1,183 nucleotides of DNA, taken from the sequence record OR846234.1; one strand, written 5' to 3'. Made by a program: the position numbers and the translations under genes. Below the pieces are notes generated by a model, which saw only the letters and a program-made list of their open reading frames with translations, searched no databases and was not told the origin of the DNA. How positions within the stretch are numbered: position 1 is the stretch's first letter; each line of letters begins with the position of its first letter. Positions 1 to 1,183 of this stretch are shown here, piece after piece. Source of the DNA: a phage.

Positions 1-852
1 GCCGCGGCTGTTACCGCATGGGCGTCAACGTGGCGCATTCCGCAATTTAAAACGGTTGGCCTGCCGACAATGGGGGCTTACCGTGAACTACGCAAATTGC
101 CGCGCGGCGTCAGCATTGCTGATGAGTTTGACGAGCGCGTCGAGGCTGCACGCGCCGCCGCAGACAGTGGTGATTTTGCGTTGTATATCAGCGCGCAGGG
201 TGGGGCAAATGTCCCGCGCGATCGTCAGACTGTCAGGGTCGCCCGTAGCCCGTCGGATGACGTTAACGAGTACGAGGAAGAAGTCGAGAGAGTGGTCGGC
301 ATTTACGCGCCGCATCTCGGCGCGCGTCATATTCATATCACCAGAACGACGGACTGGCGCATTGTGCCGAAAGTTCCGGTCGTTGAGCCTTTGACTTTAA
401 AAAGCGGCATCGCCGCGCCTCGGAGTCCTGTCAATAACTGTGGAAAGCTCACCGGTGGTGATACTTCGTTACCGGCTCCCACACCTTCTGAGCACGCCGC
501 AGCAGTGCTTAATCTGGTTGATGAGGGTGTCATCGAATGGAGTGACCCGGAGGTCGTGAAGGCGCTCAGGGGCGCATTAAAACACAACCTGAGAACACCA
601 AATCGTCAGCAAAGAAACGGAAGCCCGTTAAAACCATATGAAATGGCACCATCGGCCAGACTGACCAGGTCGGAACGAATGCAAATTACCCGTATCCGTG
701 TTGACCTTGCTCAAAAGGGTATCAGGCCGCAGCGATGGGAGCTCGAAGTGTTGGCACGAGGCGCTACTGTTAGTTATGAGGGACAAAATTTTGCATTCAC
801 GGATAGCCATGACTGGAGTGGTTTTGCTGAACACTTTGATCTTTTTGAGTAA
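1..852 (+). CDS. hypothetical protein, probably 5'-truncated by the window edge (first in-window ATG at 70; stop TAA 850-852)
   Basis: Frame 1 is open from nt 1 to the TAA at 850-852. The supplied ORF track calls 70..852 (260 aa). Codons upstream of ATG70 (GCC GCG GCT GTT ACC GCA TGG GCG ...) look coding, with enterobacterial-type preferred codons (CTG, CCG, GCG, CGC), and there is no purine-rich Shine-Dalgarno in the 15 nt before ATG70, so the real start is likely upstream. All other tracked ORFs in 56-834 overlap this one out of frame or on the opposite strand. I do not recognise the product family from the translation. Confidence 0.75.
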   Translation, partial: AAAVTAWASTWRIPQFKTVGLPTMGAYRELRKLPRGVSIADEFDERVEAARAAADSGDFALYISAQGGANVPRDRQTVRVARSPSDDVNEYEEEVERVVGIYAPHLGARHIHITRTTDWRIVPKVPVVEPLTLKSGIAAPRSPVNNCGKLTGGDTSLPAPTPSEHAAAVLNLVDEGVIEWSDPEVVKALRGALKHNLRTPNRQQRNGSPLKPYEMAPSARLTRSERMQITRIRVDLAQKGIRPQRWELEVLARGATVSYEGQNFAFTDSHDWSGFAEHFDLFE

Positions 853-855
853 TTA

Positions 856-903
856 CCATAAAATGCTCAGGCTACCGCTTGGGATATCCCATGGAATGCT
901 CAG
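856..903. repeat. two 15-bp direct repeats (CCATAAAATGCTCAG 856-870; CCATGGAATGCTCAG 889-903; 13/15 identical, 33-bp register) flanking a perfect 10-bp palindrome GGGATATCCC (881-890)
   Basis: Read directly from the sequence. The first repeat starts 4 nt after the CDS stop codon. The palindrome lies between the two copies and also contains the arm of the long-range inverted repeat (872-883). Confidence 0.6.
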
Positions 904-936
904 TGTATACGCTTTATGCATAGGGTATAAAGGCTG

Positions 937-952
937 CAATTGGCAACAATTG
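937..952. promoter_or_regulatory. paired palindromic hexamers CAATTG (937-942 and 947-952) at 10-bp spacing; candidate operator or regulator-binding site upstream of the small ORF
   Basis: Read directly from the sequence: gCAATTGgcaaCAATTGtgc, lying 10-25 bp upstream of the GGAG at 962-965. Nearby are further small palindromes (GTATAC 905-910, ATGCAT 916-921) and a 6-bp stem CTTTAT/ATAAAG (912-917 / 927-932). Confidence 0.25.
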
Positions 953-973
953 TGCTGACATGGAGATAAACTC

Positions 974-1069
974 ATGTTGAAACTAGTGAGAGTACGTCAG
1001 TACAACCGCTATCGTTTCGGACGTTGGGAGACGGTGCGTAAACACCGCCGTTCTTACCCAACACGATGA
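974..1069 (+). CDS. candidate small ORF encoding a 31-aa arginine-rich basic peptide (MLKLVRVRQYNRYRFGRWETVRKHRRSYPTR)
   Basis: ATG 974-976 to TGA 1067-1069. GGAG at 962-965 sits 8 nt upstream of the ATG, a near-ideal Shine-Dalgarno spacing. The peptide has 9 Arg, 2 Lys and 1 His against 1 acidic residue. Codon usage is mixed (CTA, AGA, GGA, CGA are rare codons). It is too short to appear in the supplied ORF track. No homology could be checked. Confidence 0.3.
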   Translation: MLKLVRVRQYNRYRFGRWETVRKHRRSYPTR

Positions 1070-1070
1070 G

Positions 1071-1139
1071 ATGATATGCGGCCTAAGCGGTAGTGTCTTC
1101 TATATTCTTTTTCTCTTCATACATTTTATTAAAATGTGA
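1071..1139 (+). CDS. candidate 22-aa hydrophobic small ORF (MICGLSGSVFYILFLFIHFIKM), very tentative
   Basis: ATG 1071-1073 begins one nucleotide after the stop of the 974-1069 ORF; the stop is TGA 1137-1139. There is no separate spaced Shine-Dalgarno, so translation would have to be coupled. The hydrophobicity may simply reflect the T-rich sequence (TTC, TTT, CTT, ATT codons). Confidence 0.12.
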   Translation: MICGLSGSVFYILFLFIHFIKM

Positions 1140-1183
1140 AATATCTCCCATAAGTCTAAATATCTCTTTAAATTGTGTGATGT
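1094..1183. promoter_or_regulatory. AT-rich tract (about 26% GC) with direct repeat AAATATCTC (1139-1147 and 1158-1166); candidate promoter/operator region or the start of low-GC acquired DNA
   Basis: Hand-counted GC is 24 of 93 for 1091-1183, against the high-50s % in the CDS. A -10-like hexamer TAAAAT sits at 1130-1135 but has no good -35 partner. No ORF with a credible start runs to the window edge. Confidence 0.35.

Follow-up and report, generated by a model that had tools for sequence, protein, structure and literature searches.

P2-like prophages carry a variable slot between gene A and gene Q (gpA-gpQ), next to cos, which in P2 itself holds tin and old (Odegrip 2006; PMC9122126). The slot was defined as a hotspot from 18,150 Escherichia coli loci by Rousset et al. 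2022 (PMC9122126), and four new systems were described from the P2 hotspot by Vassallo et al. 2022 (PMC9519451). The fifth commonest hotspot system, present in 420 loci, is an RloC-like AAA_13 ATPase, which is listed in Table S5B of the former study as system #5 'AAA_13' (420 occurrences) with the note 'RloC-like' (PMC9122126). Here we describe a stretch of phage DNA of 1,183 nt (sequence record OR846234.1; the whole analysed stretch is hereafter called the window) in which the 3' part of a P2-type gene A is followed by a spacer and then by a steep fall in G+C content. The best explanation of this step, in which we have high confidence, is that P2-like prophage sequence meets an AT-rich, RloC-like cargo gene in the gpA-gpQ slot.

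The closest described nucleases join an ABC ATPase to an effector. The definition of RloC comprises ABC motifs, a helical insert that bears a CX2C hook and, at the C-terminus, an Arg-X3-Glu-X36-52-His triad in which a Ser often precedes the His; mutation of any one of the triad residues in the RloC of G. kaustophilus abolishes its anticodon-nuclease activity (PMC2610378). The RloC and PrrC RNase domains were classed as HEPN by Anantharaman et al. 2013, who placed a group of ABC-HEPN proteins borne on prophages, exemplified by APECO1_4465 from E. coli APEC O1, beside the RloC-like family and not within it. The Old protein of P2 is an ABC ATPase with a TOPRIM abortive nuclease that is reported to cut tRNA (bioRxiv 10.64898/2026.07.10.737580).

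The whole window was matched by megablast in E. coli chromosomes at no more than 99.7% identity, with the annotated features 'replication endonuclease' and 'AAA family ATPase', and over the first ~790 nt it agrees at 94-96% with the gene A sequences of P2 and P2 relatives. The main reference locus was that of E. coli PMV-1 (L001), where the window corresponds to positions 12001-13183. This locus is a complete P2-like prophage adjoining cpxP with the order integrase, C, cox, B-region genes, gene A, ATPase gene, portal gene Q, terminase and capsid genes, and the three genes of interest lie at 10564-12852 (gene A, plus strand), 13083-15290 (735-aa ATPase, minus strand) and 15721-16755 (portal Q, minus strand). 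The order gene A, ATPase, portal Q was also found in L002, L005-L008, L012 and L069. The ATPase gene (WP_021038201; 2.2 kb) is convergent with gene A and extends past the window, so that the AT-rich tail is coding sequence from its 3' end and not a promoter. According to the preliminary description, which was made from the letters of the window, any cargo would lie beyond the visible sequence; its last 33 codons are in fact included (Table 1).

The G+C content is 24.7% at 1091-1183 (23/93) and 27.7% at 1083-1183, compared with 53.2% at 1-1090 (Fisher exact test for 1091-1183, p = 1.2e-7; p = 1.8e-4 against the local segment 853-1090). The lowest-GC window of 93 nt within 1-1090 has 33 G+C, and none elsewhere falls below 35%. 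When two changepoints were fitted by likelihood the breaks fell at 575 and 1097, and the profile is stepped, with ~55-63% (1-570), ~47-54% (570-850), 46.5% (the spacer 853-1082) and then ~25%. The sharp fall near nt 1091 that had been claimed beforehand was thus confirmed, as was its beginning directly after the distal arm of an inverted repeat (872-883 / 1082-1093); the low G+C count given for the tail was right in substance but not exact (24 of 93 had been counted), and the starting level in the high 50s was too high, since the spacer has already come down from it. In the near-identical prophage of L001 the low-GC stretch continues past the window, at 28-33% from 13083 to ~15400 (~2.3 kb) with 52-60% on either side; since it covers 2.3 kb the step is no local fluctuation. 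The G+C content at third codon positions is 0.29 in the ATPase gene and 0.55 in gene A, and the ATPase gene has ~30% G+C overall, which reflects a foreign origin, as usual for such cargo. A return to host-typical G+C within about 100 bp, together with core genes, had been named as the outcome that would speak for a mere promoter; in L001 the sequence beyond the window instead shows low G+C for 2.3 kb and an accessory gene.

Table 1. Features located in the window (positions are those of the window unless a locus is named)
Feature	Position	Strand	Remarks
P2-type gene A, 3' part (gpA, replication endonuclease)	1..852	+	frame 1, stop codon 850-852; annotated 'replication endonuclease' in all E. 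coli hits and gpA in P2-like phages
Sigma-70-like promoter (candidate), TTGATC-N17-TAAAAT	836..864	+	consensus scan; L001 12836-12864; overlaps the end of gene A
Long-range helix, 5' arm	871..883	+	alignment columns 4-16 pair with 225-237; compensatory and G.U changes
Leader hairpin, 8-bp stem	912..932	+	100% of cells paired in 13 variants; 2 pairs change on both sides
Hairpin with invariant GNRA (GCAA) loop and covarying stem	936..953	+	column 73/86: UA in 5, CG in 4, AU in 2
Hairpin pairing the 5' part of the Shine-Dalgarno sequence (GGAG, 962-965) with ATG 974-976	954..983	+	RNAalifold helices 4 and 5
31-aa arginine-rich open reading frame, MLKLVRVRQYNRYRFGRWETVRKHRRSYPTR	974..1069	+	in every variant; no annotation in those RefSeq (PGAP) records of E. 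coli that were inspected
Long-range helix, 3' arm	1082..1094	+	takes in the stop codon and the two final codons of the ATPase gene; megablast to divergent alleles ends at 1092
RloC-like ABC ATPase-HEPN gene, 3' end	1083..1183	-	last 33 codons and TAG stop codon 1085-1083; translation ...ITQFKEIFRLMGDISHFNKMYEEKKNIEDTTA to the stop
Low-GC tract	1091..1183		24.7% G+C; runs on at ~30% G+C for 2.3 kb in L001

Gene A was found in 1680 of the 5426 complete E. coli genomes searched, matches covering at least 80% of the window in 93 and the segment 853-1092 in 94, with an 'AAA family ATPase' beside this segment in all 40 records listed. With the ATPase at the slot in only 93-94 of the genomes, the ATPase gene is accessory and not core. 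The slot has other contents elsewhere, namely other open reading frames (ORFs) in P2, a DUF4209 protein in 569R9 and a reverse transcriptase (RT) together with AAA_13 in a Yersinia prophage. The suggestion that a horizontally acquired low-GC cargo, an accessory system, would follow downstream is therefore borne out by a 2.2-kb gene of 30% G+C between genes A and Q. This gene is cargo of the published P2-like gpA-gpQ defence hotspot, and both slot and protein were already catalogued, WP_021038201 being entered as 'AAA_13' in Table S5A of Rousset et al. 2022 and the representative of their system #5 being nearly identical to it (PMC9122126).

The 735-aa protein matches Pfam AAA_13 end to end (E 2e-110, model positions 4-712 of 713) and the PADLOC model PDC-S06 (PDLC04886) with E 1.5e-249, where residues 2-727 align to positions 4-725 of the 727 in the profile; the NCBIfam search returned no specific model. 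It has the ABC motifs Walker A (GQNGAGKS, 30-37), the LSEGE signature (499-503) and Walker B (LIVIDD, 531-536) including DD at 535-536, and a switch His (H569) within LTHN (567-570). A CPFC motif (254-257), a candidate zinc hook, lies in the helical insert of ~400 residues between Walker A and the signature, and the C-terminal triad is formed by R642-NIL-E646 and, after 39 residues, S685-H686. Homologues were collected by a protein homologue search, contig look-ups and IMG/VR scans (a contig scan with back-translated patterns gave three loci, one of them useful). Among 50 homologues with identities down to 21%, Walker A, CPFC, LSEGE, DD, H569, R642, E646 and H686 are invariant and Ser685 is nearly so. 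With R-X3-E-X39-SH, ABC motifs and CX2C the protein has every sequence hallmark of RloC. The AlphaFold2 (AF2) model of a 69%-identical homologue (predicted local distance difference test score 82.8) comprises an ABC head, helices of great length at 90-141 and 276-448, and a C-terminal domain that is helical throughout, and its best fold matches in the PDB are Rad50 and SMC heads, PtuA and AriA. The module is also present in APEC O1 (L069, WP_000423308); gi 117623091 of Anantharaman et al. 2013 may be this protein, to which its position fits.

With the position, orientation, composition and family membership of the ATPase gene and the variability of its slot established, its most likely function is prophage-borne abortive defence by tRNA cleavage, where nuclease activity, tRNA target and defence phenotype are all predicted. 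The ATPase part would sense an infection cue and switch on the C-terminal RNase, which would cut anticodon loops of tRNA; translation would then halt and the competing phage could not replicate.

Several points weigh against the interpretation of the locus as an RloC-like defence cargo. The window is only 99.7% identical to the reference loci, and the sequence downstream of it is deduced from near-identical prophages. PDC-S06 is a candidate single-gene defence system only. In the AF2 model CPFC is found within a loop amid shorter helices and with no clear coiled-coil apex, the ATPase head accounted for most of what the fold search returned, and the HEPN fold of the C-terminal domain is a predicted one. 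The sequence search of the PDB gave no informative relative but only similarity to AriA at the level of the P-loop and a spurious S3 match. Finally, no report of an experimental test of this ATPase subfamily was found in the literature searched, and the subfamily is absent from the systems cloned by Rousset et al. (PMC9122126).

The alternative that survives best accepts the cargo gene as real but takes its product for a DNA-repair or chromosome-handling ATPase of the Rad50/SbcC kind and not for an anticodon nuclease acting in defence. The fold matches to Rad50 and SMC heads are in its favour, and non-defence genes such as partition systems and toxins also occur within the hotspot (PMC9122126). 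We nevertheless consider it unlikely, given that the R-X3-E...S-H triad is invariant in the 50 homologues and essential in G. kaustophilus RloC, that Rad50 and SbcC are without such a C-terminal domain (PMC2610378), and that no Mre11/SbcD-like partner gene was found at the L001 locus. In addition, the Photobacterium damselae relative adjoins an AAA_15/AAA_21 gene, which suggests a defence islet.

In a preliminary description of the window, variation across strains had been expected to begin near 1090. A sample of 60 records spread evenly across the 1683 E. coli hits gave a different picture, as the P2-like homology was mostly lost at ~780-825: about 45 matches ended at 779-796, three at 1092 and one at 825, and one was full-length. 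Phage records end likewise, and the alignment to P2 and 569R9 loses homology at ~nt 825. These ends place the break between backbone and cargo, and with it the recombination junction of the hotspot, inside the last ~20 codons of gene A and not after its stop codon; gene A follows the P2 backbone to ~nt 790 and from there on differs together with the cargo. The cargo module thus starts upstream of the G+C step, near nt 790-850. The segment 853-1092, being limited to 94 genomes and standing beside the ATPase in all 40 records listed, is part of the same module. ATPase allele classes share 52-65% protein identity with each other and their spacer DNA is 73-82% identical, and the boundary at 1092/1093 is only the place where divergent ATPase alleles cease to align at the DNA level.

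Many 'complete' E. coli chromosomes, some plasmid records and L007 (1-2289) begin exactly at the start codon of the P2 gene A, and the window match is found at record positions 1438-2620 in many of those rotated E. coli records. Such record starts are presumably a database artefact, made by an assembly-rotation tool that took gene A for the replicon start gene.

The arms of the inverted repeat, 872-883 and 1082-1093 (12 nt, one mismatch), are 92% complementary. RNAalifold, applied to 13 distinct sequences, predicts a 13-bp helix (871-883 / 1082-1094) which is the inverted repeat of the preliminary description. In the predicted structure 96.2% of the cells pair, compared with 32-50% when partners are slid, and 12 pairs change on both sides, compared with 2-5 in the slid controls; none of 500 shuffles reached the observed values. 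The plus strand folds with -96 kcal/mol (z = -7.3) and the minus strand with -69 kcal/mol (z = -3.2), and many of the pairs are G.U, which are workable on the plus strand only. The stem at 936-953 differs in L002, L006, L013 and L015 with its pairing kept, and the hairpin at 954-983, in which the Shine-Dalgarno flank pairs with the start codon, may serve translational control (GGAG lies eight nt upstream of ATG). Taken together, the segment 853-1082 appears to be not a mere spacer but a conserved, strand-specific, structured mRNA for a 31-aa protein (868-1097). Its RNA would start at ~870, the first base of the closing helix, if the candidate promoter at 836-864 is used; in most variants the spacing between a -10-like hexamer and the 5' arm is conserved. 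A stretch of 13 nt that lacks a terminator separates the stop codons of the small ORF and of the ATPase gene, so the convergent transcripts probably overlap.

In the Rfam scan of the window at E <= 1 nothing was returned but a sub-threshold match to RT-6 at 910-981, across the leader hairpins, which was put down to chance (19.1 bits, with a gathering score of 46.7 for the family; E 0.23). Gene A and the ATPase coding sequence are also linked by another long-range inverted repeat (36-51 / 1167-1182; 16 nt, 81% complementary, 1115 nt apart), probably due to chance.

The arms at 871-883 and 1082-1094 could instead be the ends of an element resembling a miniature inverted-repeat transposable element (MITE), or a site-specific recombination site, with the G+C step as insertion junction. 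It agrees with this that all variants have the arms unchanged or almost unchanged and that the homology between classes of ATPase alleles breaks off precisely at the distal arm, at 1092. The arms, however, show covariation (U-A for C-G in 5 of 13 sequences and A-U for G-C in Photobacterium), G.U pairs are tolerated on the plus strand only, the plus strand folds far better, three internal hairpins covary as well, and in the E. coli genomes searched the 240-bp segment has a single copy per genome, which lies at this site in every case. Covariation of the arms, strand-specific G.U pairs and the single site together argue for an RNA helix and not for terminal inverted repeats. The reading as a MITE or terminal inverted repeats was accordingly rejected, and we regard it as very unlikely. 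A better explanation for the break at 1092 is that the conserved RNA module serves as an anchor where diverged ATPase alleles are exchanged by homologous recombination.

The other meaning that had been proposed for the AT-rich tail, a strong promoter or UP element driving a gene just past the window, is extremely improbable. Promoter-like hexamer pairs do occur in the tract, 13 of them, but shuffled sequence has 10.4 +/- 3.4 and there is thus no excess. The tract is a leftward ORF ending at 1083-1085, of which the 33 residues include positions that are invariant among ATPase variants; moreover, the low G+C runs on for 2.3 kb, and the start of the cargo gene lies at the far end of it (L001 15290). 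Equally improbable is a chance fluctuation in composition, or the AT-richness that is ordinary in the interval between two convergent core genes of a phage. E. coli phage intergenic and 3' regions are often AT-rich and the G+C content dips to ~40% already around 781-990, but the Fisher test gives p of the order of 1e-7 and the low G+C spans the whole of a 2.2-kb accessory gene.

The 31-aa ORF, which lies in the cargo module, was found in each of the six variant classes of E. coli, in every IMG/VR locus holding the 3' end of an ATPase of at least 40% identity, in prophages of Serratia and Yersinia and in Photobacterium damselae. A degenerate DNA pattern of the ORF was found in 24 IMG/VR contigs, and 24 of the 24 hits adjoin the 3' end of an AAA_13 gene. 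In frame the proportion of synonymous differences (pS) is 0.48 and that of nonsynonymous differences (pN) 0.12, with the ratio reversed and stop codons present in the other two frames, and the variable sites are distributed over the codon positions as 11/13/24. This substitution pattern indicates that the ORF is under purifying selection.

In a P2-like prophage of Yersinia enterocolitica (L015, 6666-8165) an RVT_1 gene lies between gene A and the module of small ORF and AAA_13. The slot therefore holds two cargo units in this prophage, and since the RT gene separates the small ORF from gene A, the small ORF travels with the ATPase. In Photobacterium damselae the ATPase module is chromosomal, outside a P2 prophage, and lies between the AAA_15/21 gene and miaE/topA. 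The AAA_13 module of that locus (L013, 2539-3810) adjoins the AAA_15/AAA_21 ATPase gene and two unannotated ORFs, in a region from LysR to miaE/topA, and has the appearance of a small defence islet in the chromosome.

The peptide matches PHROG 21154, a small phage protein of unknown function, with E 1.6e-9 over residues 3-30, and the Photobacterium version does so with 3e-8. Relatives with 57-67% identity occur in a lambdoid Stx1 phage (in the interval that separates the cI region from N), in Peduoviridae phages of Ralstonia and in a phage contig of faecal origin, and a representative library yielded another six small proteins that share their core (E <= 1e-3, the length of the query being limiting). 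The distant relatives (L070, 3956-4090, gp19 of Escherichia phage SH2026Stx1; L071, 2209-2292; L072, 2770-2850) share the core V.VR.Y.R.RFG.WE.V..H.RS.P, and a stem-loop follows each ORF. There was no AAA_13 match within their fetched flanks (up to 4 kb on each side), and a strict, family-wide linkage of peptide and ATPase was rejected for this reason. An identity as hok-like type I toxin was also rejected, as the peptide is highly basic and without a hydrophobic segment.

From these data it is conceivable, though we put it forward only tentatively, that the 'single-gene' RloC-like system is a two-part module with the ~225-nt structured mRNA (871-1094) as constant partner. The mRNA or its peptide might restrain or tune the nuclease, either through the peptide or through antisense overlap with the 3' end of the ATPase gene, for example during the lytic growth of the prophage itself, when early-operon transcription could read through gene A. 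Judged from the loci compared, RNA and ORF are inherited together with the ATPase across 40-100% protein identity, including the non-P2 site in Photobacterium, and a functional tie of the peptide to the nuclease is plausible; the distant peptide relatives with flanks devoid of AAA_13 matches, as described above, are a caveat. Since slot and ATPase are in the literature, the structured small-ORF mRNA may be the only new item here. It has a practical side, as cloning of the AAA_13 gene alone would probably sever or leave out a conserved neighbour running across its stop codon, and such a loss could alter toxicity or activity and lead to a false-negative defence assay. The locus is also a worked example in which a simple step in G+C points to a P2-like prophage's cargo slot.

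Some mRNAs, such as those of hok type, are closed by long-range pairing of their 5' and 3' ends, and arginine-rich peptides can bind GNRA-like hairpins, as lambda N does at boxB. Both offer a lead, and only that, for the RNA described here, in which a 13-bp helix joins the ends of an mRNA of ~225 nt, the start codon is sequestered and an invariant GNRA loop stands upstream of an arginine-rich ORF. Unlike a hok-like membrane toxin, the peptide is strongly basic and not hydrophobic, and the locus shows neither an antisense RNA gene nor a nut-site context.

Among the nucleases, the ATPase shares with PrrC of the E. coli prr locus the combination of an ABC NTPase and a C-terminal HEPN-type RNase, the Arg-Glu-His triad and the rationale of abortive defence. 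PrrC, however, is without the coiled-coil/zinc-hook insert of RloC (PMC2610378), where the present 735-aa protein has a helical insert, and it is embedded in, and silenced by, a type Ic restriction-modification (R-M) system, whereas the neighbours here are the phage genes A and Q. No hsd gene was found at the L001 locus, and with no R-M locus and an insert present the identity as PrrC was rejected. The Old protein of P2 occupies the same prophage slot and likewise fuses an ABC ATPase sensor to a nuclease effector, but the effector here is HEPN-like and not TOPRIM; no TOPRIM or OLD family match to the ATPase protein was obtained in Pfam, NCBIfam or PADLOC, and the identity as OLD was rejected on these grounds. 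With RloC of G. kaustophilus (PMC2610378) the protein shares the ABC motifs, a CX2C in a predicted long helical insert, the C-terminal R-X3-E-X39-(S)H triad and the arrangement as a stand-alone gene unlinked to an R-M locus. This likeness is one of motifs, and a homologue labelled 'wobble nucleotide-excising tRNase' (JGI) is only 28% identical to this ATPase. As regards the site, the locus agrees with the P2 gpA-gpQ hotspot in having the same slot between genes A and Q next to cos and the same catalogued protein; whereas the published hotspot catalogue presents it as a single-gene system and makes no mention of further parts, it is here accompanied by a linked small ORF and a structured RNA.

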